Below are positions 30,619 to 53,733 of a DNA stretch of 63,029 nucleotides, piece after piece; the stretch's first letter is position 1, and every line of letters starts with the position of its first letter. The DNA is from an uncultured Thermoplasmatales archaeon (GTDB taxonomy: Archaea; Thermoplasmatota; E2; DHVEG-1). Below the pieces are notes generated by a model. It was not told the DNA's origin and ran no database searches. It worked only from the letters and a program-made list of their open reading frames with translations. The stretch is from contig CAYLLH010000112.1 of assembly GCA_964384785.1 (NCBI GenBank), positions 1 through 63,029 on the forward strand, in the 5' to 3' direction. The translations under genes and the position numbers were made by a program.

Positions 30619-30650
30619 GTGAGGACTATTGGTCTATAAATTTTAAGTAT
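30619..30650 (+). promoter_or_regulatory. Secretome promoter module, copy 1
   Basis: 'TGAGGACTATTGGTCTATAAATTTTAAGTAT'. TGAGGA at 30620 and TCTATAA 13 nt later. ATG 30694 is downstream. Confidence 0.6.
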
Positions 30651-30693
30651 CCTTTAATTTAATTTCTATTATAAAAAAACTATTTTATAAAAA

Positions 30694-32301
30694 ATGGCGA
30701 TAAAAATGAAAAAAAATAATACATTAATACTCGGAGCTATTCTAATAGTAATAATTTTGATTCTATCTGGTACTTTATTATATATAAATTTTAGTGAATC
30801 AGATGAAAAAAAGAAAGATAAAAATGGTGAAGAAATCGATGATCGAATTAGTCCTCTTACCAATCAAGCAATTTTTTTAGAAATCCATAGAATTCGTAAA
30901 AAAGGTATAATCGATCATATGTATAATTCTGGGAATAATATATTTGATGTATCCCCAACTACTTCAAAAATTAAAGAAGTATTTCAAATACTTGATGGAA
31001 TTAGGCCTGGAAAAGGATGGGATAAGAAACCTCAGTTTAGTTATAATGTTGTTTTTGATGAATTCGAATGGCAAGGACGACCTGTTTATAAAAACTGGGA
31101 TACAGGTTATATGAATCAAGAAATTTTTAGAAATGTTGAAGAAGAAACATCTGAGACAACAATATCTTTTCAGATAATAGAAAAAATTCAAACTAAACAA
31201 TTCCTAAGAAAAAATACTGTTGATAAAGAAATGGATGGTTTCCGTGTGACATATGATTATAGAACTGGTAGGTGGTCTGGTGCTGATTCTTTTAATGATA
31301 GTGATGGATATGGTCACTATAATGGTTCAAATTATGAGGTATGGTTTACCATCCGTCAAACGTCAGCTGATGGTGATGACATTCCTTATTGGACTGAGGT
31401 AAATGTACTCGGTACGGATCCAACTGTTGATGATTCTAAACTTGATCCTGATAATGATGGTATTGATACTGAATGGGAATGGAAATGGGGATATGATCCT
31501 ATGGTATGGGATAATCATAGTGTTCTTGACCCTGATCTTGATGGTTTACAAAACAGTGAAGAATATTTTATGAGAGAATGGTTAGCAAATCCATTTCATA
31601 AAGAAATTTATTTAGAGGCAGATTACATGGAACAGACTCCAAAAAAACCATTGAACAAAGATGGTTATGATGGTTGGAAACATGTTTTTTATTTTGAATC
31701 ACAACAAATGATAATGGAAAGATTCAATGAGCATGGTATCACAGTTCATATTGATGATGGAAGAATGGGTGAGGGCGGAGATCTTTTTCCATTTGGACGG
31801 GGAAATCAAGCATATAATCAGGAAGCAGGCCTTGTAGCTGGTTTTTATGATAATGATTTTCCGGATGAAAGAAAAGGAATATTTAGATATATTGTAATAG
31901 CATATGGTGGCGGTTGGTGTCACCCTCAGGATTCTAATCATTACTATGATTGTATGTGCGTACCTCATAACAAAAATTTCTTCAAAAAACAGCTTAATAT
32001 GGCAATAACTGACAGGACAAAAAGGATAGGGCAAGCTATACAGATTTTACATGAAATGGGGCATTCACTAGGGATGCTTTCAGAGTTTGGTGGGGTAGAT
32101 AATGCTTTATCACGTTCAGAAGATCCTGATAATTATCCTTGGCTTGACTATGTAAGTGTTATGAACTACGATTATTTCAGACAAAGATACTTTGATTACT
32201 CTGATGGTTCTAATGGAGAATATGATCGCGATGGCTGGGCGACTATTGATCTGACTTTCTTCCAGACATCTTCTGAGTATATGGAGGGAGTTGGATCATA
32301 A
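30694..32301 (+). CDS. Membrane-anchored zincin-like metalloprotease with Asp-rich calcium-binding-type repeats
   Basis: 535 aa. N-terminal anchor, 'DPDNDGIDTEWE' and 'DPDLDGLQNSEE' (thrombospondin-type-3-like), and HExxH 'ILHEMGHSLG' (HEMGH = 32050-32064). Confidence 0.65.
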   Translation: MAIKMKKNNTLILGAILIVIILILSGTLLYINFSESDEKKKDKNGEEIDDRISPLTNQAIFLEIHRIRKKGIIDHMYNSGNNIFDVSPTTSKIKEVFQILDGIRPGKGWDKKPQFSYNVVFDEFEWQGRPVYKNWDTGYMNQEIFRNVEEETSETTISFQIIEKIQTKQFLRKNTVDKEMDGFRVTYDYRTGRWSGADSFNDSDGYGHYNGSNYEVWFTIRQTSADGDDIPYWTEVNVLGTDPTVDDSKLDPDNDGIDTEWEWKWGYDPMVWDNHSVLDPDLDGLQNSEEYFMREWLANPFHKEIYLEADYMEQTPKKPLNKDGYDGWKHVFYFESQQMIMERFNEHGITVHIDDGRMGEGGDLFPFGRGNQAYNQEAGLVAGFYDNDFPDERKGIFRYIVIAYGGGWCHPQDSNHYYDCMCVPHNKNFFKKQLNMAITDRTKRIGQAIQILHEMGHSLGMLSEFGGVDNALSRSEDPDNYPWLDYVSVMNYDYFRQRYFDYSDGSNGEYDRDGWATIDLTFFQTSSEYMEGVGS

Positions 32302-32316
32302 AAACAATTTTTTTTG

Positions 32317-32350
32317 TTTGAGGAATCATGGTCTATAAAACTTAAATATA
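32317..32350 (+). promoter_or_regulatory. Secretome promoter module, copy 2 (orphan, no ORF behind it)
   Basis: 'TGAGGAATCATGGTCTATAAAACTTAAATAT'. TGAGGA at 32319, exactly 200 bp before copy 3. Confidence 0.55.
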
Positions 32351-32408
32351 AAACAAACAAATAGAGGAATTAGAGCAAATATCTATATCGATCTCTAGGA
32401 AAATGTAT

Positions 32409-32460
32409 GGGGGGGGTGAATTCATGAGTCCCCACCCCTCTTATTTTTTCTTTTTTTATT
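32409..32460 (+). terminator. G/C hairpin plus T-tract
   Basis: GGGGTG (32413-18) pairs with CACCCC (32333+100 = 32433-38) across a 14-nt loop containing GAATTC. It is followed by 'TTATTTTTTCTTTTTTTATTTT'. Confidence 0.35.
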
Positions 32461-32516
32461 TTGAAATTACAAAAATATTAGTAAATTATTTGATAATAAA
32501 AATAAAAATAATTATG

Positions 32517-32550
32517 CTTGAGGAATATCGGTCTATAAACCTTAAATAAT
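32517..32550 (+). promoter_or_regulatory. Secretome promoter module, copy 3
   Basis: 'TGAGGAATATCGGTCTATAAACCTTAAATAA'. TGAGGA at 32519. ATG 32602 is downstream, with GGGGGAT 8 nt before it. Confidence 0.6.
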
Positions 32551-32601
32551 GATATAATTAACATATATTTATAAAACTAATAATTATGGGGGATAAAAAC
32601 A

Positions 32602-35600
32602 ATGAAAACTTATTTTCAAAAATTTAAAAAATTATCAATCACATTTATAATATTAGTATCATTAATAACAACATCCACTTTAGCATTTACAACTGTTGCA
32701 AAAAACCCAAAAGAAAATGAGCAAGGATTCAATAAAGGCTCCTCATATCTACCTGTGAACACTGTTAAAAAAACTACATTAGTCAACTACAATGAAAACA
32801 GTTACCTCGATGACTATGCTTATTTTGCATCAATACCAACCGCTGTTTTTAAAAATAACAACCAACTCTATTCCCATCCTCTTTTATTCTATCAAGATTC
32901 TGTCAAGGATGAAAATAAAATTTTAACCTCTAATGGACGAACTGGTCTAAATTATTTCATGGAAGATTGGGAGAGTGCAAATAATGATGTTTTTGATGAG
33001 ATAACTACAATTAACATACCGACTGGTAAAATAAATCAATGGAATGCAGAAACATACAACACTATCAATAGTGATTCACCTGAAGAAATAGCTGAAAAAA
33101 TAGCTTTACATGACTGGTCCTACTCAGATGAAGCAGTTTTAGCAAACATTAACACAAATTATAATGATAAATCAAAAACTGAAATATCGAATATGATTAA
33201 ATCCTCGATTCAACCTTGTGATGTTAAAAAAATTTCAAAAATGAATTTTGTTCTAAAAAACAGATTAAAACCAGAATTCAATATTTTTCAAATAGATAAT
33301 GATTATAAACATGTTAAAGCAGATGTATATTGGGATATCTTAATTGATTCAAAAAAAATTGGTATGATATCATCTGCAGATCCTGCTGGAAATCCTGATG
33401 TACAATTTTATTCTCCAAAAAATAATGATTGGATACAAACATCTGCAACCTGTTCAGAAACCAAAGGACCATATGGCCATAAATATGCCAATGCTCATAT
33501 TAATGAACCTGGAAAATGGAAAATTAGTATATCAGATATACCCACCCAGGAATTATCATCAAATATTAAACAAAGATTTTCAAATTTTTTACAAAAAAAT
33601 AAGTTAACATATTATGTTGACATCACTATGTATCCTGGTGTAGATATAGAAATACCAGATGTTCCAGAATATAAAAGTCAAAATGCATTTTTTAAGTTAA
33701 AATGGGATGACCCAAAAAAACAATTAGGTTTTTCAATTATTGGACCAAATAAGGAATCTATTTTTACTAAACTTGATGAAACCAAAACTGGAGTTTTAGA
33801 GATAAAACTAAATGAACTACCTGAGATTTTGGATGATAAAAAATACAGTTTATCTGTTTTTAGTAAAAATGATGTCACCGAAGAAATAAGTTTCGAGGTT
33901 GAATATGGATGGGAAACAAAACCTGGTAAAAACCGGGATTCTCTAACCTCTGCCTCAGAGGGAAGTATCTTAGCTAGTCAACTAAATGCACCATTGTTGT
34001 ATGCAAAAAATGGTAAAATATCTGAATCAACAGAAAAAGTACTCTTTAAACTCGGAGTTAAAAAAATCTATCTTGTTGATATCAATAAAAATATAGATGT
34101 TACTGCAAAATATGCTCTACAGGAAAACTTCAATGTTAAATATTATAGTTCCTTAAAAAAAATCTATGATAAAATCCGAGATTTTTCTAAAAATAATGAT
34201 GTGATTTTTTCAACAATTGAATCATGGATTGATTGGGATCCTGAAACCTTGAAACCTAACTATAAAGAATCTTATGGTTTGTCTCTTGGACCTGCAGCTT
34301 TTATCGCCGCACATCACGGAAGCCCTGTTTTAATAATTGAAAATCATCCCGAGCTTTCTTCTGCAGCATTGTATCATAACCAACTCTGGAATCGTTATTC
34401 AACAGATCGAAAATTTCACAGACCTTCAGATCTTGAAATGTATCTGACTGGAACTGCGATCTATGAATTCCTTAAAGAATATGGGTTTGACAAAAATGAT
34501 GAAAAAGAAACAATAATCACTGTGGCTGGACAATATAATATTGGTCCATCCTGGGATCGTATCTTTCCAGGTGTAGCTAACTCTGGGCGATTTTTTGGGA
34601 ATCCTGTTGATATAAGTTATTGGGTTTCAAGAAATATATTCTACCCAATATTAGTTTTTGAAAATCCTGGTGTAGAAGATGAGATTGAGTTAATCAATGG
34701 AAGTAGTAGTTACCGGGATACAGGTCTTAAACTTGGTAATATCAAAAACTTTGTTTTAACAAAAGATGCTTTGATTCAAGGTGGTATTAATTATTTTAGA
34801 AAAACTTCAGATAGTAAAATTGAAGTCTATAAAAACCCGGTTTTGTGTTCATTTTTAGTATATCAGCATAGGTTCAATGAAAGAGCCAGTAAATATTACG
34901 GGGAAAAGTATGTTTGTGCTGATGGAACTGTACCAGGTGAAACAGTTACTGACTATCCAATTGATTCAGATATAATGAAAGTATTTACAGGTTCTGATGA
35001 GATGGTTTTTCCAGATATAACTGAATCTGAAATAATTCCTTTATACCTAAAAAAAGGAGGATTTGATTCTGTGTATTCCACCTCTAAAGAAGCTGTGGTT
35101 GAAAATCTTAATCAAGGTGTTCTTCTGTGGATTCATGGTTCTCATGGAGATGAAAAAGATGGTGGAACGACATTATTCTGGAATCCTCAAGAGGGATTTG
35201 AAAATCGTGATAACTATTTTGTAGCAAAATTACTGTATTTTCATAAATCTTATTTAGATTTACAAAATAATAAAATTGTTAATCTTTTGTCTACCTTTAT
35301 TCCTCAGATAAAAGGGACTTTCAAACTCAGTGAACCAAAAATAGGGGTTTTCCAAGATGATAATCCTTGGAGGGCTTATGAGTGGTATATGGGTTCAACA
35401 GATGAACCAGATACTATGGCGGTTGATATTAAAGGAATGTTGCCTTATACCTCCTTATCTTCTTCTTTGTTTCCTTCTTTAAATATGCCCTATGTCGCGT
35501 CCTATGAGCCATTCAAGGTTTTTCTTAATAATATCATTCCTTTTACCGATCCATTCAATGTTGAAAGTAATTATGATGGAGTAGTTGGCTCCTTTGCACA

Positions 35601-36204
35601 ATCAAAATTTCAATATAATAAATATAGTTCTTTTGATATTGAAAAAAATCTTGAAAATTTGCATTCAACAGGTTTTATCACAAGTATATGTAACACTGGA
35701 GGAAGTTATCTTCATCTTATGTTAGTACGCCATGGTTCTGTTTTCCAGATACAAAATCCTTGGCCTTCTTCTATATATAGCTCTGTATGGATGCAATCAA
35801 TACCTCGAGATATTGTTTCAGGGGCATCTTTAGGTGAAGCATATGCAAATGGTCTTGAACATGTTGGAAGTATGATTCTATCAAAAAATAATAAAAATCA
35901 GTGGTGGTGGGATTCTGGTCAAAATCTAATATATTATGGTGATCCAAACCTGCGTGTTTATGTTCCAGATTCAAATTATGATGATTCTAATACTTGGGAA
36001 AAACCTGTTTTTTTAAAATATTCTGAGTCTAATGTTGATGGACATACTGTATTTGGAGCAGAAAAATATCCACATGAAAGACAACCTGTGTCGTTATTTG
36101 AAAGATATTTTTATTTGATTCTTTTTGTTTCTTTGATTACTTTGGTTTTAATCTTAATTTTTTCTTATGATAAAGTTTTTAATAGAGGTGAATCAAAAAA
36201 ATGA
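32602..36204 (+). CDS. Large (1200 aa) surface protein: signal peptide, C-terminal TM anchor, possible gingipain/C25-like C-terminal domain
   Basis: Signal 'ITFIILVSLITTSTLAFT' and C-terminal 'YFYLILFVSLITLVLILIFSY' plus a basic tail. Candidate catalytic contexts are 'VLLWIHGSHGD' (about 35131-35150) and 'ITSICNTGG' (about 35680-35700), with 'LIYYGDPNLRVY'. Three 'A..xxAPLL/SPVL' modules are reminiscent of CWB2 repeats. Confidence 0.7.
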   Translation: MKTYFQKFKKLSITFIILVSLITTSTLAFTTVAKNPKENEQGFNKGSSYLPVNTVKKTTLVNYNENSYLDDYAYFASIPTAVFKNNNQLYSHPLLFYQDSVKDENKILTSNGRTGLNYFMEDWESANNDVFDEITTINIPTGKINQWNAETYNTINSDSPEEIAEKIALHDWSYSDEAVLANINTNYNDKSKTEISNMIKSSIQPCDVKKISKMNFVLKNRLKPEFNIFQIDNDYKHVKADVYWDILIDSKKIGMISSADPAGNPDVQFYSPKNNDWIQTSATCSETKGPYGHKYANAHINEPGKWKISISDIPTQELSSNIKQRFSNFLQKNKLTYYVDITMYPGVDIEIPDVPEYKSQNAFFKLKWDDPKKQLGFSIIGPNKESIFTKLDETKTGVLEIKLNELPEILDDKKYSLSVFSKNDVTEEISFEVEYGWETKPGKNRDSLTSASEGSILASQLNAPLLYAKNGKISESTEKVLFKLGVKKIYLVDINKNIDVTAKYALQENFNVKYYSSLKKIYDKIRDFSKNNDVIFSTIESWIDWDPETLKPNYKESYGLSLGPAAFIAAHHGSPVLIIENHPELSSAALYHNQLWNRYSTDRKFHRPSDLEMYLTGTAIYEFLKEYGFDKNDEKETIITVAGQYNIGPSWDRIFPGVANSGRFFGNPVDISYWVSRNIFYPILVFENPGVEDEIELINGSSSYRDTGLKLGNIKNFVLTKDALIQGGINYFRKTSDSKIEVYKNPVLCSFLVYQHRFNERASKYYGEKYVCADGTVPGETVTDYPIDSDIMKVFTGSDEMVFPDITESEIIPLYLKKGGFDSVYSTSKEAVVENLNQGVLLWIHGSHGDEKDGGTTLFWNPQEGFENRDNYFVAKLLYFHKSYLDLQNNKIVNLLSTFIPQIKGTFKLSEPKIGVFQDDNPWRAYEWYMGSTDEPDTMAVDIKGMLPYTSLSSSLFPSLNMPYVASYEPFKVFLNNIIPFTDPFNVESNYDGVVGSFAQSKFQYNKYSSFDIEKNLENLHSTGFITSICNTGGSYLHLMLVRHGSVFQIQNPWPSSIYSSVWMQSIPRDIVSGASLGEAYANGLEHVGSMILSKNNKNQWWWDSGQNLIYYGDPNLRVYVPDSNYDDSNTWEKPVFLKYSESNVDGHTVFGAEKYPHERQPVSLFERYFYLILFVSLITLVLILIFSYDKVFNRGESKK

Positions 36205-37136
36205 ATAGAAGAATATTTGCAATAATTTTTAGTTTACTTTTTCTAATATCTACAACTGTTAATGCATTAAGTTTGAAAACTAATAACCATAATTTAGATG
36301 ATGTATCTAAAGATTTTTCATCTTCTGATTCTTCCAAAGTTATTTTAGCACAGAATCAGAGTACTGTATCAGAATCACTTTCAAACTCAACATATGGTTT
36401 TACAGGTCCTAGTAAAATTAATTCTACAGGTAAAGGACTCATTTTAATAGTTCCTTTACAACTAGCTAAATTTGACATTCCTGTTCCTAACATTCAGTAT
36501 AATTTCTTTCCTATAAGAGTAAATTTATTTTTAATCTATTGTGTCTATAATGATTCTAATGCTTCAACAAAAATAACAAAAATGAATGGCGAAGTTAAAT
36601 GGATAAATGGCAGTCATTCATTGTTACTCGGAATGTTTTCACTTCCAACAATAAACTTTTTAAGGTTTTTATTAATAGATGGATTAATAGATGGAGCTAG
36701 ACCATTACAAATTCGTTTTGCTAATTTAATTGGTTTGCCACCTATAGCTTTATTATTAACAAAATTACGAGATATGTTTTTGGTTGAACCTTTAATGAAT
36801 ATCTCTGATTCACTGTTTAATTTTTTAAGAGAGATGAAAGGTATTCCACCTAATTATAAACCTATCAATCCTGTATTTGATTTACCCTGGATTAATAATA
36901 TCTGGCAAATAAGAGTAAATATATACATCTATTGGCAGCTTTTTTTGAATTTAGTTGGAATTCCTGTTAAGCCAACACTAATTGGAGTTATAATGCCAAT
37001 CAACCAGATAGGATATACACCTTTTGTAATATGGAATAAAGATCCTATGTTTGGTGATGGAGTTTCCAAAATTCAAGATACTGCTCTCATGTTTTTGAGT
37101 AAATTAGGTTTAGAGCCTCATCCAGATTATAAATAA
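36201..37136 (+). CDS. Secreted hypothetical protein, translationally coupled to the 1200-aa gene
   Basis: 311 aa. ATGA overlap. Signal 'FAIIFSLLFLISTTVNALS'. Confidence 0.6.
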   Translation: MNRRIFAIIFSLLFLISTTVNALSLKTNNHNLDDVSKDFSSSDSSKVILAQNQSTVSESLSNSTYGFTGPSKINSTGKGLILIVPLQLAKFDIPVPNIQYNFFPIRVNLFLIYCVYNDSNASTKITKMNGEVKWINGSHSLLLGMFSLPTINFLRFLLIDGLIDGARPLQIRFANLIGLPPIALLLTKLRDMFLVEPLMNISDSLFNFLREMKGIPPNYKPINPVFDLPWINNIWQIRVNIYIYWQLFLNLVGIPVKPTLIGVIMPINQIGYTPFVIWNKDPMFGDGVSKIQDTALMFLSKLGLEPHPDYK

Positions 37137-37141
37137 ATTTT

Positions 37142-37175
37142 CTTGAGGATTATTGTTCTATAAAATTTATATAAT
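37142..37175 (+). promoter_or_regulatory. Secretome promoter module, copy 4
   Basis: 'TGAGGATTATTGTTCTATAAAATTTATATAA'. TGAGGA at 37144. ATG 37257 is downstream. Confidence 0.55.
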
Positions 37176-37256: not shown

Positions 37257-37862
37257 ATGAAAAAAAATAAAAAAATAAGAATTAATTTGATGCTGGTTTT
37301 GTTAACAATACTTTTTTTAACAACCTCTCTTACAGTATCTGCCCAAACCACTGAAACGAAAACAGAAAATATCAATAAACAAACTACTGGGAAAATATGT
37401 GGATATATTACATGGGGACGCGAACATCCTGATTATGTCAATAAAGGTGATATAATCTCCGGTGAAAATGTTGCTGTTCAGGTTATAAAATATGGAATTG
37501 TGAGATGGAGCGAATCAGATAGATCTGATGAAAACGGTTATTACGAAATAGAAAATATTCCAATGGGTGAAACCTATAAAAATGGTGAACCCTGGGAATT
37601 TGTTGTTCAACTAAGTATCGTTATCAATGATGGAGGCATAATCTATAGGTATAGAGGTAGTTCTAATCGTTTTGAAATGCCTGAAAATGGTGACAAGATC
37701 ATATATAAAAATGTTAGTACCAACTCAGTTGATATTGAACGTTATGGACTACATCGTAATAACTTATTTCAGCAAATAATAGATTTTTTTAAAATAAATC
37801 TACCAATTTTTTTAGATCATTCATTTATTAACGAAAATTTTCTAGCTAATAAATTTCTTTAA
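37257..37862 (+). CDS. Secreted protein with carboxypeptidase-regulatory-like beta-sandwich motif
   Basis: 201 aa. Signal 'LMLVLLTILFLTTSLTVSAQT'. 'ENGYYEIENIPMGETY' resembles the CarboxypepD_reg 'G.Y.i..lp.G.Y' motif. Confidence 0.5.
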   Translation: MKKNKKIRINLMLVLLTILFLTTSLTVSAQTTETKTENINKQTTGKICGYITWGREHPDYVNKGDIISGENVAVQVIKYGIVRWSESDRSDENGYYEIENIPMGETYKNGEPWEFVVQLSIVINDGGIIYRYRGSSNRFEMPENGDKIIYKNVSTNSVDIERYGLHRNNLFQQIIDFFKINLPIFLDHSFINENFLANKFL

Positions 37863-39425
37863 AAATTTTGTAAATTTGTTTGAAGGAATCCTTATTTTAT
37901 TGCAAATAAATTCAATGAGTTGAATGTCTTCAATCTCTATACTTTTTGATAAAATAAAAAACAGAAAGTAGATTATGTAGAACACAAAAAGATATAATAT
38001 AATATTCCAAGAATGAAGAATTGGGTAGTATTCAAAAAAGTAGAATAAAATGGCAGCTGCTATGATCATTATTACTGTTGGTTTTATCAAATGTAGATTA
38101 AAAGGTTTTAGTTTTATTTCTTTATAAAGAAAAATATTTTTTATTAAAGTAAAAATGAAAATAGCTATTAGAGTTGATATTGCTGCTCCTGCTATTCCAT
38201 AAATTGGTATCAAAATTATGTTTAAAACAATGTTTATAACTGCTGAACAAAAAATTGCATACATCACAAGTCTGGGTTTCCCGATCGATACAAGGGTTGC
38301 CCCATTTGGTCCTGAAAAATTTGTAATCATTGCAGCTAAAGCTAAAAGCCTAAGAGCAGTACCCGCAAGTAAATATTCTGAACCATAAAATATTTTGATC
38401 AAAAAATCTGGGAATAAAAAAATAAAAAGAAACAATGGAAATGTTACAAAACAAAGCCATTTTGTTAAAATAATATAAACCTTATTAATCTCATTTATTT
38501 TTTTTCCACCATATAGATTTGAAGCAACCGGCATATACATTACTAGTAAAACACCAATTGGGAATGTTAAAAAACCTGATAGAACAAATGCTACATTGTA
38601 AATCCCAACACTTACAACATTTTTTAAGAAACCAATTAAAAAATTATTAGCCCAAATATTTATTTTTTGAAGGATTGTAACTGTTAAAAGAGGGAGAGAG
38701 AACAATAAGAGTTTTTTAGCAATATCATAATCAAACTTTTTTTCGCTAATCTTTGCTATGTTTTCAGATTTTTTAAAACTATAAAATAGCAAAATTATGA
38801 ATGTAATGCAAGAGGTAAACAGACAACCATAAAAAATATAAATAAAAGAAAAATCAAAAATTATCACAAAGATTATTGAACTAATAAAAACCAATGAATA
38901 CATTATTTGATGAAAATATACAAAAGGTTTGATGTTATTTAAACCACGGAAAATAGATACAAGCACCGTTATAATGTTTAAAAAAGGTATAGTAAAAGCC
39001 AATAGTATTAAGGGTTGTAAAAGTTTTTTTTCTTCAAAAATTTGATTAGAAATAAATTGTGAGGATAACAACAGAATAATTGCCATTATTATACTAAAAA
39101 TAGTTGTTAAAAAAAGTGATGTTTTAACTATTACTGGTATTTTTTGTGTGTTTTTTTTACCTTTTTCAAATGCAACATTTCTTGTCATGCATCGGTCAAA
39201 ACCAAAAACTCCTACAGCGGTAAAAATCTGTAGAATTGAAAAAGCTAGAGTAAAAATTCCTAATTCTGTTTTTGTCCAAAATCTTGCTATTAGAACAGAT
39301 GTTAAAAATAAAAAAAGAGATGAGATTAGAGAGCCAATAAATACAAAACTTGTTCCTCCTACTACGGTTTTAAGTGAATCAGATACCCATTTTACCTTTG
39401 TTTCTTTTTCTATGTTTTTTCCCAT
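37842..39425 (-). CDS. MOP-superfamily polysaccharide/oligosaccharide flippase (Wzx-like)
   Basis: 527 aa with about 14 TM helices and the typical polysaccharide-biosynthesis-protein topology. Its 3' end overlaps the convergent gene by 21 nt. Confidence 0.75.
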   Translation of the reverse strand: MGKNIEKETKVKWVSDSLKTVVGGTSFVFIGSLISSLFLFLTSVLIARFWTKTELGIFTLAFSILQIFTAVGVFGFDRCMTRNVAFEKGKKNTQKIPVIVKTSLFLTTIFSIIMAIILLLSSQFISNQIFEEKKLLQPLILLAFTIPFLNIITVLVSIFRGLNNIKPFVYFHQIMYSLVFISSIIFVIIFDFSFIYIFYGCLFTSCITFIILLFYSFKKSENIAKISEKKFDYDIAKKLLLFSLPLLTVTILQKINIWANNFLIGFLKNVVSVGIYNVAFVLSGFLTFPIGVLLVMYMPVASNLYGGKKINEINKVYIILTKWLCFVTFPLFLFIFLFPDFLIKIFYGSEYLLAGTALRLLALAAMITNFSGPNGATLVSIGKPRLVMYAIFCSAVINIVLNIILIPIYGIAGAAISTLIAIFIFTLIKNIFLYKEIKLKPFNLHLIKPTVIMIIAAAILFYFFEYYPILHSWNIILYLFVFYIIYFLFFILSKSIEIEDIQLIEFICNKIRIPSNKFTKFLKKFIS

Positions 39426-42576: not shown

Positions 42577-42596
42577 AAATCTTTTTCTGGTTTTTT

Positions 42597-44103: not shown

Positions 44104-47100
44104 TTAAAAAACAATGATTGTTTTCAAGATTTTTATGCCAAACGCATCTTCTTCAAAGCTTTCGCCGTTAACTGTTACATTCACATTGATGTTTAACAAT
44201 GCAAACATTGAACTAATCTCATCTGTGTAAAAAGTTTTTTTACCATTTGCTTCTAGTAAATCAAAAGATGTTTCATTGCTAACATTTACTCTGCTTAAAA
44301 ACTTGCTTTTCACTGAGTAAACAATATTGATATTTTCATGTTCGTAATCATTGTCATTCTGGATTTCTACGGTTAGGTTGTTTTTATTTAGTAGTTTAAA
44401 ATTGATTTGTATCTCTGTTTCTGTGGTTGTTTCATCCGCTGTTGTAAAACTCCAAAAACCAGATACATCTTCAAGTTTTGAGTCAGTAACAATTGCATAC
44501 CAGCTGTATGTTGTGTTTGCTTCAAGTCCTTCCCATTTGAAGCTGTAGCTTCCATCTGATAAACCTGTTTTTTCATTAAGAACGTTGTAATCTCCATCAT
44601 AAAAAGTTAAATCCATCAGATCTCCATCTGGATCAGAGATACTAACTTGTAGGTTTGCACTATGCTTGGATGTTAATGTGGCACCATCCTCTGGTTTCTC
44701 ATTTACGATTTCTGGAGGATTATTAATATCATCATTTGTAACAGTTAAATCTATGCTGAAAACACTGTTTCCGCCGTTAGAGTTTATAATTATGTCTTCA
44801 TGATATTCTCCAACTGTTAAACCAGTGGTATCAACTTCAACATCTATTGTATCATGTTCACCTGTTGAATCTCCATTTTCTGGTGTTACTGTTAACCAAT
44901 CCTCTGATTCGGAAAGAGTGTAGCTGAGTGTTCCTGTTCCACTGTTCCAGATTTCAAAATTTGTACTGCGGATGTTACCTGGGTTCATTTCTCCAAAATC
45001 ATGTGAATCGGGGTTGAAACTTAATGCTGCTGTAACACCTGCATCATCTGGAGCAAATGTTTTAAACATACAATCTCGTTCGGTGTCAACATTCCAATCC
45101 TCGGATCCTGTTTTTCTTAGATAAACATCTCCTTGTTCATAGAAATTATTATATGTAAAACCCCAAAGGTATGAACTCGCTATGCTACCTGGATTTACTG
45201 TCTCAATTTTTGCTATGATGTAGTAAGGTTCGCCTATGTTTAATTGTACATCATCAAAATCAACTGTTACCCAGCTGAATTCTTCATCGATTTGAGTTGG
45301 TGAAAAGGTTACTGTATCAACAATTGTTCCATCTATGCTTCCTTCTCTAAGTTCTATTATTAGATTAGATTTTGGCTTTGATTTACATAGATACAGATCA
45401 ATACTATCCAAAGGTGTCATTGTTGGTATGAATTCTTGACCAACATCGCAGTCTCCACCTATCTGGAATCCCTGATCATATACAACCTGTAGTTGATCTA
45501 ATTCTCTATCGTTATCAGGGTCTGCAGATGGAACTCCTTTAGTGGTAAAACTAAAAGCTCTTGATTGAGTGGTGAATATGTCGTCATCGGCTACAGCATA
45601 CCAGCTGTATTTTTTTCCCTCACATAGATTATCCCATTTTACTGTTGCTCTTCCTCCATCAAGTACGTTTTCATCAACACCAATAACACTGTCATCTGAA
45701 GCATCATAGAATGTAACTCTCATGCTGTTTCCATCAGGATCTGATACCTCTACACTTAGTTCAACAGGAAGTTCAACATTTTCTGCGTTTTGAACAGGGT
45801 TTGGGTTATCTGGTCTGTTGGGTGCTTGACCATATTTCAATGTTAGAATCGGAGGTGCAGCTGGATGAAATACATCAGGAACGCGGTTTGCAAATTTCAT
45901 AACAGAGTAATCGTTATTGCCGACTTCTATACCTTCTATATCTTGGCTACTTCTCAAGCATAGTTTTGTCATACCATTTTTTGTTATCCAATTTAGTCCA
46001 TCGTTGCTTAAATCAAACTCGGTGTAACTTGCACTTTCAAAATCAGAGGTTGATATTCGTCCTCCATCGCCATGATAATTGGTTCTATCATAATCATAAG
46101 CACTGGTTTCTCCCCAGTAAACATTGCCTTCTAATCCAAAATACCAAGGATATGGATAGTTATTAGGATCCCATCCGGCTATATCGTGAGGATGAGGTAG
46201 TCCTCTGTATTGTGGATGAGATGGTTGACCATTTTGTATTACAATATCAAAAACTGTATCAGGTGTATTTAGGCTGTACAAAGAAAGAGCTCCTGCACCA
46301 ATTTCTGCATTAGAAGGTATGTCAGTCGTGTTGAAATATAAAAATGAACGGTAGATGTCTATTTTGTTTGTTGCTGTACGTCTTATAGTTTGACCTACAT
46401 TAAAACTTGAACTTGAATAACCACATCCTCTTTGAAGATCTCTTGCTTCATCATAATCCATGAGATATCTACTAGTGGTCATGCATTCTTCTGTTGTAGA
46501 AATTATTCTATAAACAGTTTCAATTTTTAAAATAACTTCCCCATTTCCACCATTTGTATTGATTTTAACAGGAGTATTATAGTTGCCGCAACCCGTCATT
46601 TTTGAAGTATCAATCTCAACTGTTACTATGTCTTTTTCTCCTGTTGAAATACCAGAGGTTGGTGAAAAAGAAATCCAATCTGATTCTGTTGACATGCTCC
46701 AATCTAGCTGTGTGTCTCTTCCTAATTTATTCCAAATATTGAAACTGGTTGATATCTTATCACCAATGTCTTTTCTACCAAGGTTTAAAACTTTAGGGCT
46801 ATATGCTAATACTGCTCCAACTCCAACGTTAAGAGTAAACTTGTCATTTCCGCCATTGGATTCAATAGATATCTCACAAGTATGCCATCCGTTTGAAACA
46901 CCTGTTGTATCAATATCAATTGTTATTTTATCATGTTCACCTGTTGAAGTACCATCTGTTTCTGAAAGAGTTATCCAATCAAAATCAGGATTTTTAGATA
47001 GATGATAATTTAAAGTTTCAACTCCACTATTCCATATTTCAAAAGATCTTTTAGCTTGTTCTCCTTCTTTTAAGCATACATCATCAGATTCTGGTGTGAA

Positions 47101-48747
47101 AGATAAAACAGTTCCAATTGTTAGATCGATTTTAAATGTTTCACTTCCTAACCCCTCTGTAATTATTAAGATATTACTTTTATATGATCCATTAAGAAGC
47201 CCGTTAGTATTAATGGTTACAGTTATTTCTTCGACTTCATTTTTTATTAATGTACCATGGTTTGGTGATACTGAGATCCAATCTTGATCTGCTTGAATAT
47301 AAAAATCTAAACTAGAACGATCAGTCCATATCTCAAAAGTTGTAGAAGCAGCTTCTCCTTGTTCTAATCTGGCTTCATAGTTTTCTGGAGTAAGTTCAAA
47401 AATTGATGGAGTTCCTTCTAAGCATTTTTGAGCATTGATTCTACCTGAACCTACATATTGATCGGTATTTATGTTATCGGTGTTTTCTACTAATATTGTT
47501 TTAACTTCATTGTTGGGTAGAGTTGGATCTTTGGTTAATATCAGTGCAGCTAAACCTGATACGTGTGGACAAGCCATGGATGTACCAGAATAACTTCCAT
47601 AGTTATCATTTCTGAGTGTTGATAAAATACTAACTCCTGGTGCAGCTAGATCAACCCAATTTCCATAGTTTGAAAAATGTGCTCTGTCGTCATTTTGATC
47701 AGTAGCTGCTACAGCTATTACTTTATCAAAACCAGCAGGATAGTGTTTTGCATTTGTATCTGAGTTTCCTGCTGCGGCAACAATAACAACATCTTTTGAA
47801 TAAGCATAATCTACGGCATCTTCCATTACTTGACTGTATCCTCCGCCTAAACTCATGCTTATAACGTCGGCACCATTATTTGCAGCATAATTAATTGCTT
47901 GTGATACTGTTTGTGAACTTCCGCTACCAGAAGCGCTTAGACATTTAACGGGCATGATTGATACATCCCAGGATACACCACTTATACCTAAATTGTTATT
48001 TCCAATTGCACCAATTATACCTGCGCAATGTGTACCATGATTGTGATCATCCATTGGATCATCATCGTTATTTATGAAATCATATCCTGAAATACAATTA
48101 GCCGCTAGATCAGGATGATTGTAATCGACACCTGTATCTACTACGGCTACGACGACTTCTGAACTACCTGTTTCTATATCCCAAGCTTCGGGTGCATCAA
48201 TGTCGCAATCATTATTTTGGTTTAAACTCCATTGTGAACTAAAACGTGGGTCATTAGGAACGTTATAGATATTGTATTCATAATTTGGTTCAGCATATTC
48301 AACATAATCTAAATTTTGATAGTCGTTAATCAATGACATCATATCGTTTTCTTTAGAGAATGTTAGTTTGTAATGATTTGATAGATATTCAGAATTGTCT
48401 GAATTGATGAATAATTTTTCTTGAGAAACAGCATTGTATTTTGTGTTAAGAGAATCAAGAGAAGGGATGCCTGTATTAAATGTATCATAAAACGAACCGT
48501 TTTTATTTATTTCAAAATTTTCTTTGAATTTAATTATTAAATTGTCAGGGACATAGTTTAAGTCGTTTTCATCATTGTAAGTATGAAAATTGTATTCTGT
48601 ATTTGTATTATATTTTTCGGATTCATCTTCGTTAGATGTGGTTGTGTTTCCTGTTACTGTGGAAAATGATGTTATTAAAAGAGCTGTTGTTATTAATATT
48701 ATTAAAATTTTCTTTTTTGTTTTATTTTTTATTATTCTTTCATCCAT
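44104..48747 (-). CDS. Giant secreted subtilisin-like (S8) serine protease with repeated Ig/BACON-like and Fn3-like modules
   Basis: 1547 aa.
- Signal peptide and an I9-like propeptide.
- Catalytic contexts 'VAVVDTGVD', 'HGTHCAGIIGA', 'SGTSMACPHVSG'.
- Four ~95-aa repeats with the pattern 'F.IWN.G...L.Y.LS...DW..vsP..G.STGE.D.I.v.iDT.G...G.Y...I.I.SNGGN'.
- Two ~92-aa repeats with the pattern 'SDPDG..M..TFYD......Y.W..L...T.YSWYA...D......FSFTT'. Confidence 0.9.
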   Translation of the reverse strand: MDERIIKNKTKKKILIILITTALLITSFSTVTGNTTTSNEDESEKYNTNTEYNFHTYNDENDLNYVPDNLIIKFKENFEINKNGSFYDTFNTGIPSLDSLNTKYNAVSQEKLFINSDNSEYLSNHYKLTFSKENDMMSLINDYQNLDYVEYAEPNYEYNIYNVPNDPRFSSQWSLNQNNDCDIDAPEAWDIETGSSEVVVAVVDTGVDYNHPDLAANCISGYDFINNDDDPMDDHNHGTHCAGIIGAIGNNNLGISGVSWDVSIMPVKCLSASGSGSSQTVSQAINYAANNGADVISMSLGGGYSQVMEDAVDYAYSKDVVIVAAAGNSDTNAKHYPAGFDKVIAVAATDQNDDRAHFSNYGNWVDLAAPGVSILSTLRNDNYGSYSGTSMACPHVSGLAALILTKDPTLPNNEVKTILVENTDNINTDQYVGSGRINAQKCLEGTPSIFELTPENYEARLEQGEAASTTFEIWTDRSSLDFYIQADQDWISVSPNHGTLIKNEVEEITVTINTNGLLNGSYKSNILIITEGLGSETFKIDLTIGTVLSFTPESDDVCLKEGEQAKRSFEIWNSGVETLNYHLSKNPDFDWITLSETDGTSTGEHDKITIDIDTTGVSNGWHTCEISIESNGGNDKFTLNVGVGAVLAYSPKVLNLGRKDIGDKISTSFNIWNKLGRDTQLDWSMSTESDWISFSPTSGISTGEKDIVTVEIDTSKMTGCGNYNTPVKINTNGGNGEVILKIETVYRIISTTEECMTTSRYLMDYDEARDLQRGCGYSSSSFNVGQTIRRTATNKIDIYRSFLYFNTTDIPSNAEIGAGALSLYSLNTPDTVFDIVIQNGQPSHPQYRGLPHPHDIAGWDPNNYPYPWYFGLEGNVYWGETSAYDYDRTNYHGDGGRISTSDFESASYTEFDLSNDGLNWITKNGMTKLCLRSSQDIEGIEVGNNDYSVMKFANRVPDVFHPAAPPILTLKYGQAPNRPDNPNPVQNAENVELPVELSVEVSDPDGNSMRVTFYDASDDSVIGVDENVLDGGRATVKWDNLCEGKKYSWYAVADDDIFTTQSRAFSFTTKGVPSADPDNDRELDQLQVVYDQGFQIGGDCDVGQEFIPTMTPLDSIDLYLCKSKPKSNLIIELREGSIDGTIVDTVTFSPTQIDEEFSWVTVDFDDVQLNIGEPYYIIAKIETVNPGSIASSYLWGFTYNNFYEQGDVYLRKTGSEDWNVDTERDCMFKTFAPDDAGVTAALSFNPDSHDFGEMNPGNIRSTNFEIWNSGTGTLSYTLSESEDWLTVTPENGDSTGEHDTIDVEVDTTGLTVGEYHEDIIINSNGGNSVFSIDLTVTNDDINNPPEIVNEKPEDGATLTSKHSANLQVSISDPDGDLMDLTFYDGDYNVLNEKTGLSDGSYSFKWEGLEANTTYSWYAIVTDSKLEDVSGFWSFTTADETTTETEIQINFKLLNKNNLTVEIQNDNDYEHENINIVYSVKSKFLSRVNVSNETSFDLLEANGKKTFYTDEISSMFALLNINVNVTVNGESFEEDAFGIKILKTIIVF

Positions 48748-50335: not shown

Positions 50336-50342
50336 AAAAAAT

Positions 50343-51530
50343 TTATTTTTCTTTTTTCTTTTTGTTTCTTATAAAAAGGATATTAATAACTAGGATAAAT
50401 GCTGCAATAAAGAAGATTGCTGAAAGACCCAGAAATGATAAATCAAAACTGTATTTATCAGCTATAAATCCTATCACAGATGATGAGGGGCTAGCTAGAA
50501 GGATTAGCATTGAGCGATAAAAACCAAGTTTTCCAGCTCTTCCCTTTTCTTCGAATTGATCCATTAAATATGATGATATTATAGGAAAAATAGCAGTAGA
50601 AAGTGCAAGAACAGGGCAAATTAGAAAAATAAGCCATAACTGATTACTGTATACTAAAGCAAGAGTTCCTAATCCTGTAAGAACTGTTAGAAATAAAATT
50701 ATTATGTTTTTATCAAACCTGTCAGATAGAGAACCCATGATTGGTTTAAAAATAAAACCACCAATTCCCAGTATTGCAAGAGCAATACCTGCGAGTAGTC
50801 CATCAAAACCAGGTTTGTCAACTATTAGATATGGTTGAAAAAAAGACATATAACTAATCCATGTGATTGCTATAAGTAGATTTACAACAAAAATAACTAT
50901 TATTTCTTTGTTTTTAAAAACACTGACTCCATCATAGACTCTTTCTCTAATTGATATACTTTCTGGAAGCTTGGTTGATTCCTCGGTTCCTTTGTAAAAT
51001 AAAAAAATTCCAAATATACATACAAATCCCCACAAAAAGAAGAAACTACGCCAATCATAAAAGCTTGCTATTGCTGCTGCAAACATCGGAACAATATAAG
51101 CAAGAGACCCGGCACTAGCACGTATACCTAGTGCTTTCCCACGGTTTTTTTTGAAGATATCTGTGATCATAGATATCCCAACAGAGGGGTAACCACCGGT
51201 TCCAGCTCCAAGCAAAATCAAGGCGAAAAGAAACATGAAATAATGAATTGAAAAACCCACAAGAAAATAGGAAACTGAGAATACCACCATTGCAAGGATT
51301 ATACTTATCTTTCGTCCTTTTATATCTGAAAAAATACCAGAGGGAAATTGTAATAATGCATAGAAAAGCCACATAGCAGTTAGTGCAAAACCTGCTGCGG
51401 TCCAACTGAAATCGAGGTCATTTGCAATTTGTGGCAATAAATTAGATATACTGTAACGTCCTGAGAGTATCAGAAACCAGGCAAGAGATATACAACAAAG
51501 AGCAAGATGTTCCTTTTTGATCTTTTTCAT
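50343..51530 (-). CDS. MFS transporter
   Basis: 395 aa with 12 TM helices. 'FPSGIFSDIKGRK' is the loop 2-3 motif. Confidence 0.85.
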   Translation of the reverse strand: MKKIKKEHLALCCISLAWFLILSGRYSISNLLPQIANDLDFSWTAAGFALTAMWLFYALLQFPSGIFSDIKGRKISIILAMVVFSVSYFLVGFSIHYFMFLFALILLGAGTGGYPSVGISMITDIFKKNRGKALGIRASAGSLAYIVPMFAAAIASFYDWRSFFFLWGFVCIFGIFLFYKGTEESTKLPESISIRERVYDGVSVFKNKEIIVIFVVNLLIAITWISYMSFFQPYLIVDKPGFDGLLAGIALAILGIGGFIFKPIMGSLSDRFDKNIIILFLTVLTGLGTLALVYSNQLWLIFLICPVLALSTAIFPIISSYLMDQFEEKGRAGKLGFYRSMLILLASPSSSVIGFIADKYSFDLSFLGLSAIFFIAAFILVINILFIRNKKKKEK

Positions 51531-51595
51531 ATTTATCCAATTAAGAGGGTTGTGAAAGAGATATGCTATAAATTTTTTTCGGATATTTTTTAATA

Positions 51596-51630
51596 TTTGA
51601 GGATTTTTGGTCTATAAATTTTATATATAA
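51596..51630 (+). promoter_or_regulatory. Secretome promoter module, copy 5
   Basis: 'TGAGGATTTTTGGTCTATAAATTTTATATAT'. TGAGGA at 51598, GGTGAT Shine-Dalgarno at 51650, ATG at 51662. Confidence 0.6.
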
Positions 51631-51661
51631 ATATATTTATAAATAAAAATGGTGATATTAG

Positions 51662-52264
51662 ATGAAAGAGTTGAATAGAAGATATGTTATATTTTTTGGA
51701 ATGGTTGTGATTTTGTTTTTGTTGGTTGTTTCATACTCTACTGCAATAAATTTGACAAAAGAATGTAACGAAAAAAAAATAGATATAGAAAATAATGATA
51801 AGGTTATTGATGAAAATATATGTTTAACAAAAACTAAATTACCTTTGTTAAAAATTGCAGCAAATCAAGTAAAAGATAATGATTTTAAAACTGGAATATG
51901 CTCAATTATTGAAATAATTGAAGAAAAAGGTTATATTAGCTCTACTGAAGTCAAGCATCTACTTGGTGGATCAGGGGGAATATATAGTGGTAGAATATCC
52001 TTTTCTGCATATTATAATGCTAAGGCAATTGGTTTCCCTGGTCTTTTATTTAATGGTGGCCCTTGGGTTGTTGTAGGTTGGTCTGCAAGAAGCGATGCTC
52101 AGGATATATATGGTCAGTATGGATTCTCAGGTGTATATGATAGTCCGCATAGAGGATTTGCAGTTGGTATCGGTACTTGGGAATATGATTATTACATTGA
52201 TAGCGGTTGGAATTTTGATGCGTCTGTTTATGGTTTTAGTCCTCTAATATTAATATTTGCATAG
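51662..52264 (+). CDS. Small secreted protein, family A (paralogue of 52411..52989)
   Basis: 200 aa. Signal ending 'YSTAI'. Blocks shared with the paralogue: 'LTKTKLPLLKIA', 'GGIYSGRI', 'GFPG', 'PHRGFA', 'GTWEY'. Confidence 0.65.
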   Translation: MKELNRRYVIFFGMVVILFLLVVSYSTAINLTKECNEKKIDIENNDKVIDENICLTKTKLPLLKIAANQVKDNDFKTGICSIIEIIEEKGYISSTEVKHLLGGSGGIYSGRISFSAYYNAKAIGFPGLLFNGGPWVVVGWSARSDAQDIYGQYGFSGVYDSPHRGFAVGIGTWEYDYYIDSGWNFDASVYGFSPLILIFA

Positions 52265-52344
52265 ATAAAAAAGTAATTTCATATATAGTTGTTTAAATCT
52301 GAATATAAATAGATTATATTCTAAAAAATAATTACTTATTTTTT

Positions 52345-52380
52345 TATGTGGAATATTGTTCTATAAAGCTTAAATATATA
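52345..52380 (+). promoter_or_regulatory. Secretome promoter module, copy 6
   Basis: 'TGTGGAATATTGTTCTATAAAGCTTAAATAT'. TGTGGA at 52347. A GGTGAT Shine-Dalgarno site precedes ATG 52411. Confidence 0.55.
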
Positions 52381-52410
52381 TTAAATAAAAAATATAAATG
52401 GTGATATTCG

Positions 52411-52989
52411 ATGAATAAAAAAATGATGACCTTGCTCATCATATCAATCATTGCAGTAATCTTATTAGCCCCATACTCAACTGCAATAAAAATACCAAAA
52501 GAAAAAGAAAACAACTTAATAGAAACCGAAAGAAATATAGAAAAAAATAGTTTTTTAACAAAATCAAAAATTCCGTTACTAAAATTAGCACAAATCCAAA
52601 CAAATGATAATCAACTAAAAGAAAAATTATCAACAATAATAGAAAAAATAGAAACAGATGGTTATGCAAGTTCCTCATTAATAAAAAAAGTAATGGGAAA
52701 AAATGGCGGTATTTACAGCGGAAAAATACAACTATATGCTACTAATAATGCAGGTATACGCGGATTTCCTGGAAGTTTATTAAGAAAAGGATTCTGTTGG
52801 CTTTTTTTATCTTGGGATGCTCCAAATGTTTGTTCAATTGATGCTCAATATGGAAGAGCAAACTATGATGATGTACCGCATAAAGGTATAGCACTTTTGG
52901 GTTTTGGACATTGGGAATTCTTCAAATATAATGGTGCAAATTTTGACGTACAAATCAATGGAATAAGTTCACTAATAATTATATATTAA
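52411..52989 (+). CDS. Small secreted protein, family A (paralogue of 51662..52264)
   Basis: 192 aa. 'YSTAI', 'LTKSKIPLLKLA', 'GGIYSGKI', 'GFPG', 'PHKGIA', 'GHWEF'. Confidence 0.65.
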   Translation: MNKKMMTLLIISIIAVILLAPYSTAIKIPKEKENNLIETERNIEKNSFLTKSKIPLLKLAQIQTNDNQLKEKLSTIIEKIETDGYASSSLIKKVMGKNGGIYSGKIQLYATNNAGIRGFPGSLLRKGFCWLFLSWDAPNVCSIDAQYGRANYDDVPHKGIALLGFGHWEFFKYNGANFDVQINGISSLIIIY

Positions 52990-53048
52990 TAATAGTAACC
53001 ATTCTTTTTCCATTCATTTTTTTTTCGGATTCTTTTATCTTGAGGATT

Positions 53049-53083
53049 TTTGGTCTATAAGTCTTATATATATGACTTTTATA
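53049..53083 (+). promoter_or_regulatory. Secretome promoter module, copy 7
   Basis: 'TGAGGATTTTTGGTCTATAAGTCTTATATAT'. TGAGGA at 53051. A GGTGAT Shine-Dalgarno site precedes ATG 53105. Confidence 0.6.
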
Positions 53084-53104
53084 AATAAATATGGTGATAT
53101 ATAG

Positions 53105-53677
53105 ATGAAAACTAGATTTAAAAAATATATTTTGATGTTAAGTGTTTTATTATCAGTTACTTTAATGGTTTCAACCTCAACGGCTGTACAACAAACACAA
53201 AGTAAGCAAGTAATGAACTCAATTGAAGAAAAAGAAATAAAAAAAATAGATGAAAAATCAAAAACAACGGCTAATTTGGAAGAATTTAAATCATTTAATT
53301 TTGATGATTTAGAAAATATAAAAAAATCTAAAATCACTCCAATCTTAGATTTTCTAATAAAACTTTTTGAAAATATGAATCCTCAACCAGAAGGTGGTTT
53401 TTTATATATGGTTTGTTCCATTTGTTTAAGCTTATTATATGATATTAAAGATATTTGGGAAGATACTGGCGGAATAGTAGATTTATTTGAAATTTTTATT
53501 GATTTAATACAGTTTACTATCACTCTGTTTCTTTTAATACCATTATTCATCTGTAAATCGATAATAAAAGTGTTTCAAGCTATATTTGGTGTTTTCCTGC
53601 TTATATTTGCAGGATTCTTAGCTGCAATATATTGGATATTAGAAGCAATTTTTGGTGGAGCACTCTTCCAACAATAA
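53105..53677 (+). CDS. Small signal-peptide protein with acidic linker and hydrophobic multi-helix C-terminus, family B
   Basis: 190 aa. Signal 'LMLSVLLSVTLMVSTSTAVQQ', a K/E-rich middle, and a C-terminal ~90 aa of TM-like helices. Confidence 0.6.
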   Translation: MKTRFKKYILMLSVLLSVTLMVSTSTAVQQTQSKQVMNSIEEKEIKKIDEKSKTTANLEEFKSFNFDDLENIKKSKITPILDFLIKLFENMNPQPEGGFLYMVCSICLSLLYDIKDIWEDTGGIVDLFEIFIDLIQFTITLFLLIPLFICKSIIKVFQAIFGVFLLIFAGFLAAIYWILEAIFGGALFQQ

Positions 53678-53697
53678 AAATTTTTCTTCTTTTTTTC

Positions 53698-53733
53698 TTT
53701 GTGGAATCTTGGTCTATAAACAATAAATATTAA
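53698..53733 (+). promoter_or_regulatory. Secretome promoter module, copy 8
   Basis: 'TGTGGAATCTTGGTCTATAAACAATAAATAT'. TGTGGA at 53700. An AGGTGAT Shine-Dalgarno site precedes ATG 53765. Confidence 0.55.

Follow-up and report, generated by a model that had tools for sequence, protein, structure and literature searches.

We analysed a 63,029-nt stretch of DNA from an uncultured Thermoplasmatales archaeon (contig CAYLLH010000112.1; hereafter the window) and found a 31-nt module that recurs upstream of genes for exported proteins. This module is probably a lineage-specific composite promoter for a regulon of such genes, with a candidate for its dedicated factor encoded next to it. A sequence-only reading of the window had described eight plus-strand copies with fixed internal spacing. 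Indeed, a search with the pattern TGWGGA-N7-TCTATAA returned exactly eight matches, all on the plus strand, starting at positions 30620, 32319, 32519, 37144, 51598, 52347, 53041 and 53700. None was found in 100 dinucleotide-preserving shuffles of the window, and a chance origin of the copies was rejected on this comparison. Seven of the starts are those given in the earlier reading; the remaining one had been listed as 53051, a typing error for 53041. In all copies the TG(A/T)GGA box lies exactly 13 nt before TCTATAA, and re-examination of the eight sequences gave the same count of invariant positions (18 of 31), both as previously described. The 31-nt IUPAC consensus proposed at that time matches just four of the eight copies, with positions 10, 11, 24-25 and 28 being more variable than it suggests.

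To score the copies, we built a position matrix from 25 module copies found in relatives only and scanned both strands of the window with it. Copy 1 (30620..30650; TGAGGACTATTGGTCTATAAATTTTAAGTAT) scores 33.3 bits and is located 74 nt before the ATG of gene A (30694..32301). Copy 2 (32319..32349) is the weakest match at 22.8 bits; it has no open reading frame (ORF) downstream and lies 200 nt 5' of copy 3 (32519..32549; 33.2 bits), which in turn precedes the ATG of gene B (32602..36204) by 83 nt. Copy 4 (37144..37174; 40.4 bits) starts 113 nt before the ATG of gene D (37257..37862). A second cluster, 14 kb away, comprises copy 5 (51598..51628), copy 6 (52347..52377), copy 7 (53041..53071) and copy 8 (53700..53730), of which copies 6 and 8 carry the TGTGGA variant. 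They precede the small genes E (51662-52264), F (52411-52989), G (53105-53677) and H (53765-54385), each with its own module, at distances of 64, 64, 64 and 65 nt from module start to ATG. Together with the presence of modules on several contigs per relative genome, the two clusters bear out the view that the module is found at non-adjacent loci. Across the window, the distance to the start codon is 64-113 nt from the module start, or 33-82 nt from the module end, so that the earlier figure of 41-100 nt was only roughly right. The GGTGAT ribosome-binding site assigned to the four small genes was recovered 5-6 nt before each ATG (at 51651-51656 in the case of gene E).

The module is highly specific. 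With the relatives' matrix, the eight sites score between 22.8 and 40.4 bits and nothing else in the window reaches 12 bits, in agreement with the previous remark that no housekeeping, redox, ars or replication gene is preceded by the module. In the same scan, the 5' box was never found apart from the 3' half. The 3' half (CTATAARnnTTWAWATA) was compared with 36 other gene-upstream regions of the window, all of which score 6.6 bits or less; only the adjacent regulator gene departs from this, with a 3' half-module (29876..29891, plus strand; CTATAAGGTTTATATA) in its promoter that reaches 22.3 bits and a G-rich sequence in place of the TGAGGA box. Direct reading of the promoters of ribosomal protein S3Ae, EF-1beta, enolase, eRF1, PolB, MCM and DnaJ showed them to be unlike the module, and no module was found before any of 48 non-module genes in the window or 92 in the relatives' loci. 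The sequence-only reading had allowed that the module might simply be the generic promoter of the organism; within the window and the relatives' loci, the matrix scans and the housekeeping promoters led us to reject this. A transcribed RNA element was rejected as well, since there are no Rfam or tRNA matches and the module is placed between the T-rich tail of the preceding gene and the TATA box.

We then compared the genes with and without a module. As the earlier reading had stated, seven copies precede plus-strand ORFs with a signal peptide or anchor, and all seven proteins start with a Lys/Arg-rich and then hydrophobic segment. Such an N-terminus is found in 7/7 module genes of the window compared with 10/48 others (hypergeometric probability ~1e-4). 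In the relatives alone, a hydrophobic N-terminus is present in 23/23 module genes versus 23/92 others (Fisher p = 9e-12), and when the window is taken together with the related Thermoplasmatales metagenome-assembled genomes (MAGs), 30/30 module genes encode a signal peptide or anchor versus 35/139 others in these within-locus comparisons (Fisher p = 2e-15). The link to exported proteins that had been proposed thus holds, but it extends to a subset of the secretome rather than to all secreted proteins: the module is missing from nine to ten other window genes for signal-peptide or membrane proteins, among them an S8 subtilase (44104-48747), HtrA (6269-7507) and three proteins with a lipobox-like cysteine (14792-15514, 61808-62410 and 62454-63020, reading ..FSGC, ..LSGC and ..TIGC, respectively). 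It may be that envelope proteins of the lipoprotein type and those for quality control are not part of the regulon.

By BLAST, the 30 distinct module-driven proteins form at least 18 families without links between them. Their Pfam domains include Peptidase_C25 (gingipain family), Peptidase_C11 (clostripain family), Peptidase_C13, C14, PKD, NosD/beta-helix and Big_7. Among the eight downstream proteins of the window (A-H), only E and F are clear paralogues (41% identity), and the similarity between G and H is confined to the first ~50 residues (38% identity, E = 0.001). A promoter inherited with one gene family was rejected on the basis of these numbers. One module, at position 7006 of the relatives' locus L004 (MAG CAZQXW, contig 26; loci from relatives carry L numbers throughout), precedes a 21-amino acid ORF (MSSTAAVIPWGPFLKLRKKKK; 7078-7143), which is followed by a radical SAM gene (7266-7964), with a YcaO gene (5147-6940, minus strand) diverging from it. 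The region 5147-7964 resembles a small gene cluster for a modified peptide (RiPP-like) that would be driven by a module promoter.

The module is conserved in a group of related genomes. Loci containing orthologues of gene A harbor five modules in L001 and eight in L003, each within ~21 kb, and L002 (CP070635, a 1.07-Mb genome) contains a degenerate form; in L002, an N-masked run at ~9693-9808 ends within a module copy (NNNNNAATTTTGTTCTATAAATTTTATATAT), making part of this promoter unreadable. When seven orthologous A-gene promoters are aligned, conservation is limited to the module, and the flanks have diverged beyond alignment. Promoters of the B orthologues in L003 and L026 contain the module, and L006 has E- and H-like genes with modules, the copy orthologous to that of H being located at 2858. 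We scanned one genome per species (185,579 species) with the exact pattern and obtained 26 matches in 19 stretches, a lower bound because the pattern leaves out known variants (e.g. A at position 8). Of these, 21 matches in 14 stretches come from six uncultured Thermoplasmatales MAGs, with several contigs per genome, and the remaining five stretches are isolated matches in bacteria. More distant A orthologues (54% and 48% identity; L065/L066 types) have the same gene neighborhood and no module within 10 kb, and on these grounds the module is an innovation of a narrower clade, as judged from the sequences compared.

A view of the syntenic interval between a Pyr_redox_2 gene and the ribosomal protein S3Ae gene is consistent with this distribution. 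In L001 and L025, one or more regulators are encoded in this interval along with a series of secreted genes driven by modules; the same interval holds a single gene in L066 (encoding a CarboxypepD_reg protein) and in L065 (an unannotated 631-amino acid ORF), and neither regulator nor module. The regulon island appears to have grown at this site of the chromosome. An origin from a virus or mobile element was rejected, as a relaxed pattern yielded single matches and no clusters in IMG/VR; it is also countered by the neighborhood of gene A, which is syntenic chromosome in distant relatives. Our literature searches returned no earlier description of the motif, or of a promoter signature dedicated to the secretome in archaea.

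The conserved positions can be divided into three parts. We read positions 1-15 as a bipartite, non-palindromic box (TGAGGA..TTGKW) with half-box centers ~9-10 bp apart, located directly 5' of the position of the TFB-recognition element (BRE). By eye, the box shows only a weak GA..A/T..TC symmetry, and it was treated as asymmetric. Positions 15-21 (CTATAAR) would occupy the position of the A-rich BRE, and positions 24-31 (TTAWATAT), which follow after two free bases, are more likely to be the TATA box. We base this assignment on the distance between TATA box and ATG, since TTAWATA in genes E-H and the TATA-like elements of other window genes end at similar distances from the ATG (34-35 and 33-41 nt, respectively), and on the reported centering of archaeal TATA boxes at about -27 and of the A-rich BRE at about -33 (PMC5316973). 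The earlier reading had combined both segments into a single TATA region, which probably holds for TTAWATAT but not for TCTATAAR. TTAWATAT is present in all copies, and ATAA(A/G) is found at positions 17-21, two bases 5' of the TATA box, in 8/8 window copies and in nearly all copies from relatives; an A-rich BRE as known from archaeal core promoters would thus be part of the module. Transcription is predicted to start ~23-24 nt 3' of the TATA box, near module position 54, which would place the starts at about 30673, 32372, 32572, 37197, 51651, 52400, 53094 and 53753. Position 54 corresponds to the first G of GGTGAT in genes E-H, and to the A of the ATG in the PKD genes of L001 and L025, which have no Shine-Dalgarno sequence. 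The shortest module-to-ATG distance in the whole set is 53 nt and fits a leaderless start at the predicted position.

Within the module, the information content is highest at the G/C-bearing positions of the upstream box (2.7 bits each). A core promoter that works without an additional factor has no use for such positions, and for this reason the box would appear to be the site of a dedicated factor. The same point bears on a different explanation, in which the module is a strong constitutive promoter cassette without its own factor that has spread by duplication or recombination and is kept for high expression. The common 64-65 nt spacing of the four small genes would be in line with such a cassette, and so would tandem copies that resemble local duplications. 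These are 'orphan' copies found 76-205 nt 5' of a gene-proximal copy, in the window (32319), L001 (14585), L003 (9707), L025 (19082) and L002 (9804), with no ORF between the two copies in any of them. The G/C-containing TGAGGA..TTGKW, however, is the most conserved part of the module, and it stays fixed in seven genomes in which the flanks have diverged; moreover, housekeeping genes with expected high expression do not have the module, and an element of generic strength would not be confined so strictly to exported proteins. We thus regard the cassette as very improbable.

The orphan copies are followed after ~80-100 nt by a T-run, and in the window also by a G+C-rich hairpin (hairpin and T-run, 32398..32465, plus strand). 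The hairpin is not statistically distinctive (fold z = -1.39), its region has no Rfam match, and the sequence between tandem copies is not conserved across genomes. The hairpin and T-run may end a short transcript. We considered that the orphan copy drives a conserved small RNA and found little support for this, given the unconserved downstream sequence and the fold z-score. The orphan copies could be promoters of short regulatory transcripts, extra binding sites for the factor, or remnants of duplications.

As for a protein that could recognize the box, a gene at 29945..30574 (plus strand) ends 46 nt before module copy 1 and encodes a 209-amino acid protein with two winged-helix domains. The protein matches PF24266 (HTH_HVO_0163_N) with 45.4 bits, compared with a gathering threshold of 31, and its Pfam matches are limited to HTH_HVO_0163_N, HTH_24 and HTH_5, with no Lrp/AsnC, EarA or GvpE domain. 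PF24266 is likewise found in 346 homologues of the regulator, and literature searches returned no functional study of the HVO_0163 family. An AlphaFold model (pLDDT 80, pTM 0.71) contains a helix-helix-helix-strand-strand arrangement twice (residues 2-67 and 85-156), and both recognition helices are highly conserved. The regulator adjoins modules in 7/9 loci (window, L001, L013, L022, L023, L025 and L026). In these six relatives, its orthologues (50-62% identity) are found within ~2 kb of a module, and in L025 and L026 they are immediately upstream of one, as in the window. Because of this neighborhood and the tandem winged-helix model, the 29945-30574 protein is our best candidate for the cognate factor. 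An asymmetric box of two parts, with half-sites about one helical turn apart, would be a fitting target for a single chain with two winged helices. A first metagenome scan with the regulator gave no match; a second one returned a single 2.6-kb contig, which carries a module.

Other features of the regulator were noted. Its C-terminus (~197-209) contains the motif D-x-F-P-x-P-[FY] (here DIFPxP[FY]), in which Pro-204 and Pro-206 are nearly invariant in 61 sequences, and this tail, disordered in the model, may serve as a short motif by which a partner protein docks. L025 encodes a second, paralogous regulator (7827-8525) flanked by variant promoters at 7144 and 8592 (CAAGGATTTTTTTT), which have a CAAGGA-T8 box and keep the normal 3' half; each of them precedes a small signal-peptide gene. 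This box and the second regulator may form a paralogous regulator-box pair. In L027, a shifted module variant is found before a large secreted gene adjoining the regulator.

A coordinately regulated secretome or cell-surface regulon had been proposed in the earlier reading, and wherever sequence can test this interpretation, the outcome was in its favor. The composite promoter could work as follows. A dedicated DNA-binding protein would occupy the box directly beside TFB and TBP and set the output of all module promoters together. This factor would be the 29945-30574 protein, with one winged helix per half-box, and it would more likely activate, by recruiting or stabilizing TFB/TBP. Its targets would be extracellular C25, C11 and C13/C14 cysteine peptidases, a probable metallopeptidase, PKD/beta-helix surface proteins and small anchored proteins. 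We infer the TATA and BRE assignment, the start sites, the binding protein, activation as opposed to repression, and co-expression from sequence. Several points weigh against this scheme. Most of the relatives' loci entering the enrichment analysis were reached via the module or module-linked genes; among the module-driven units, that at 7006 in L004 alone contains no signal-peptide gene; no canonical module is found within 10 kb of the regulator in L024 and L027; and shared synteny among related genomes could explain the adjacency of regulator and module without a functional link. In addition, the A-rich BRE position means that an activator is not obviously needed.

A repressor would also suit several features of the module. 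It would cover the box and the BRE position and block TFB/TBP until a signal arrives, for example the availability of substrate or peptides, with strong expression to follow. The conserved block indeed extends unbroken into the BRE position, and the BRE- and TATA-like parts are near the archaeal consensus, so that the core promoter should be strong unaided (PMC5316973). The best matches of the regulator are ArsR/SmtB-type families, whose winged helices are more often repressors than activators. A 3' half-module in the regulator's own window promoter would also be in line with a repressor, but it is not kept in three other genomes (L001, L013 and L022), and autoregulation of the regulator gained little support for the same reason. 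Many archaeal repressors, moreover, act at or downstream of the TATA box and the transcription start site. The box instead extends ~20 bp 5' of the BRE, the position typical of the GvpE upstream activating sequence (UAS), TFB-RF1 and EarA sites, and because this is where characterized archaeal activators bind (PMC2241852, PMC5937170, PMC5512572), we favor an activator and consider repression unlikely, though it is the main alternative.

A further alternative is that a specialized basal factor, either a TFB/TBP paralogue or a basal-like winged-helix subunit, reads the module and defines a separate promoter class, much like an alternative sigma factor. The usual reach of TFB falls short of 8-13 bp upstream of the BRE, and TGAGGA is found at just this distance from the BRE position. 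What speaks for such a factor is that the whole 31 nt, including CTATAAR, is distinctive and nearly absent from other promoters, that the spacing is invariant over 40-odd copies, and that L016, L025 and L027 also have signal-peptide genes behind 'core-only' variants, in which the TGAGGA box is missing (CTATAAR-nn-TATA). In a Foldseek search, the regulator model gave the tandem winged-helix proteins RPC62, ScpB, SelB and SarS as its best matches, and RPC62 and TFIIIC tandem winged helices are its best structural neighbors in this sense; the TM-scores are low (~0.28), however, and the comparison supports the generic two-domain arrangement only. No TFB or TBP paralogue was seen in the retrieved loci. 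There is a small chance that the tandem winged-helix protein, or an unseen TFB/TBP paralogue, would act as a promoter-selectivity factor reading both CTATAAR and TGAGGA, and the chance that the module belongs to a specialized basal factor is slim.

We compared the composite promoter to known systems. The closest layout is that of the GvpE UAS in haloarchaeal gas-vesicle promoters, a bipartite element of ~20 nt that is found with fixed spacing directly 5' of the BRE in several promoters (PMC2241852). The GvpE UAS differs in organism, sequence and activator, and it serves one gene cluster rather than dispersed loci for exported proteins; a GvpE-like gene was not seen here. TFB-RF1 (PF1088) from Pyrococcus furiosus binds just 5' of the BRE and acts through TFB, and its gene adjoins the target (PMC5937170), as would be the case for our candidate. 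It compensates a weak BRE at essentially one operon. The module has an A-rich, highly conserved BRE position, so that no weak BRE of this type is evident, and each genome contains at least 8-12 targets; the two proteins also come from different families. EarA, the archaellum regulator, is a small winged-helix activator that uses short boxes 5' of the BRE at a cell-surface operon (PMC5512572, PMC10665913). Unlike the module, EarA boxes are 6-bp repeats at one operon, and the EarA-family gene present in L002 and L027 encodes a protein different from the regulator and is not linked to modules. Ptr2, an Lrp-family protein from Methanocaldococcus jannaschii, recruits TBP from upstream sites beside the TATA box and BRE. 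Its sites are palindromic pairs for an Lrp-type oligomer; our box is asymmetric and the candidate factor a single-chain tandem winged-helix protein. The regulator thus belongs to none of the GvpE, Ptr2 (Lrp) and EarA families.

With the TGM of TrmB/TrmBL1 in Thermococcales, the module shares the principle of a cis-motif on dispersed promoters of one functional class; the position of the TGM relative to BRE and TATA box decides between activation and repression (PMC4706686). In contrast to the module, which is asymmetric, has one fixed position and serves exported proteins, the TGM is palindromic, varies in position and serves genes of sugar metabolism. Envelope and secretion regulons are also known from bacteria, where they depend on ECF sigma factors or, for gingipains and the type IX secretion system (T9SS) of Porphyromonas, on PorX/SigP. 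Here the likeness is a functional analogy only (one promoter signature for C25 gingipain-family peptidases and surface proteins), with no homology and unrelated machinery. As expected of a regulon site, the module is over-represented, precedes unlinked and non-homologous genes of one class, and is conserved in orthologous promoters. These comparisons together indicate that it resembles archaeal regulon promoters with an activating sequence 5' of the BRE without being a member of those systems, and that it represents no new principle of regulation.

The genes downstream of the modules, all on the plus strand, encode proteins of different architecture. In the gene A product, an N-terminal anchor helix is combined with a C2-like beta-sandwich, Asp-rich repeats and an HExxH motif; His-453, Glu-454 and His-457 of this motif are invariant in 54 homologues, and the protein is probably an exported metallopeptidase. 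A look-up of the exact protein returned no record. Its homologues are named only from uncultured Thermoplasmatota/Thermoplasmatales MAGs (best identity 71%), and Foldseek matches of its model are confined to the C2-like domain. Gene B encodes a 1200-amino acid exported protein with a C-terminal anchor and no Pfam family; PDB sequence searches with the A and B proteins returned no match. Gene C (36201..37136, plus strand) encodes a signal-peptide protein and has no module of its own; because it overlaps the end of B by 4 nt, the two genes are probably co-transcribed, and the B-C pair is also found in L003 and L026. Gene D codes for a 201-amino acid signal-peptide protein and genes E-H for small exported or anchored proteins, those of G and H with a C-terminal hydrophobic segment. 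A MatE/Polysacc_synt flippase-like gene (37842..39425, minus strand) is a conserved neighbor of the regulator and module genes. It recurs near the regulator, usually in convergent orientation, in L001 (7380-8903), L013 (3185-4732), L022 (1447-2907), L024 (10640-12190) and L027, which hints that the regulon is tied to the export of surface glycans or glycoproteins. Elsewhere in the window, the MCM-like protein (58080-59420) is short, with 446 amino acids and a Pfam match to the P-loop domain only, and the family B polymerase gene (22282-24555) is located 34 kb from it. The window is ~30% G+C, and its archaeal genes include, besides these two, one for a DUF835-PAS protein.

Sediment Thermoplasmatota have been noted for extracellular gingipain- and clostripain-type peptidases that are implicated in protein remineralization (PMC9585477), and the module-driven peptidases are of the same types. 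The group is uncultured. The module allows co-controlled exported proteins, including many without a recognizable domain, to be listed from sequence alone in any MAG of the clade, and its genes form a marker set for metatranscriptomes. Module and candidate regulator represent a concrete regulator-site pair for in vitro tests. If our interpretation is correct, archaeal transcription would gain a multi-target site of fixed geometry that abuts the BRE and is probably read by a single chain with two winged helices. Should the module instead be read by a selectivity factor, these archaea would have a sigma factor-like program for their secretome, one that would also cover the extracellular peptidases believed to drive the breakdown of protein in sediments.

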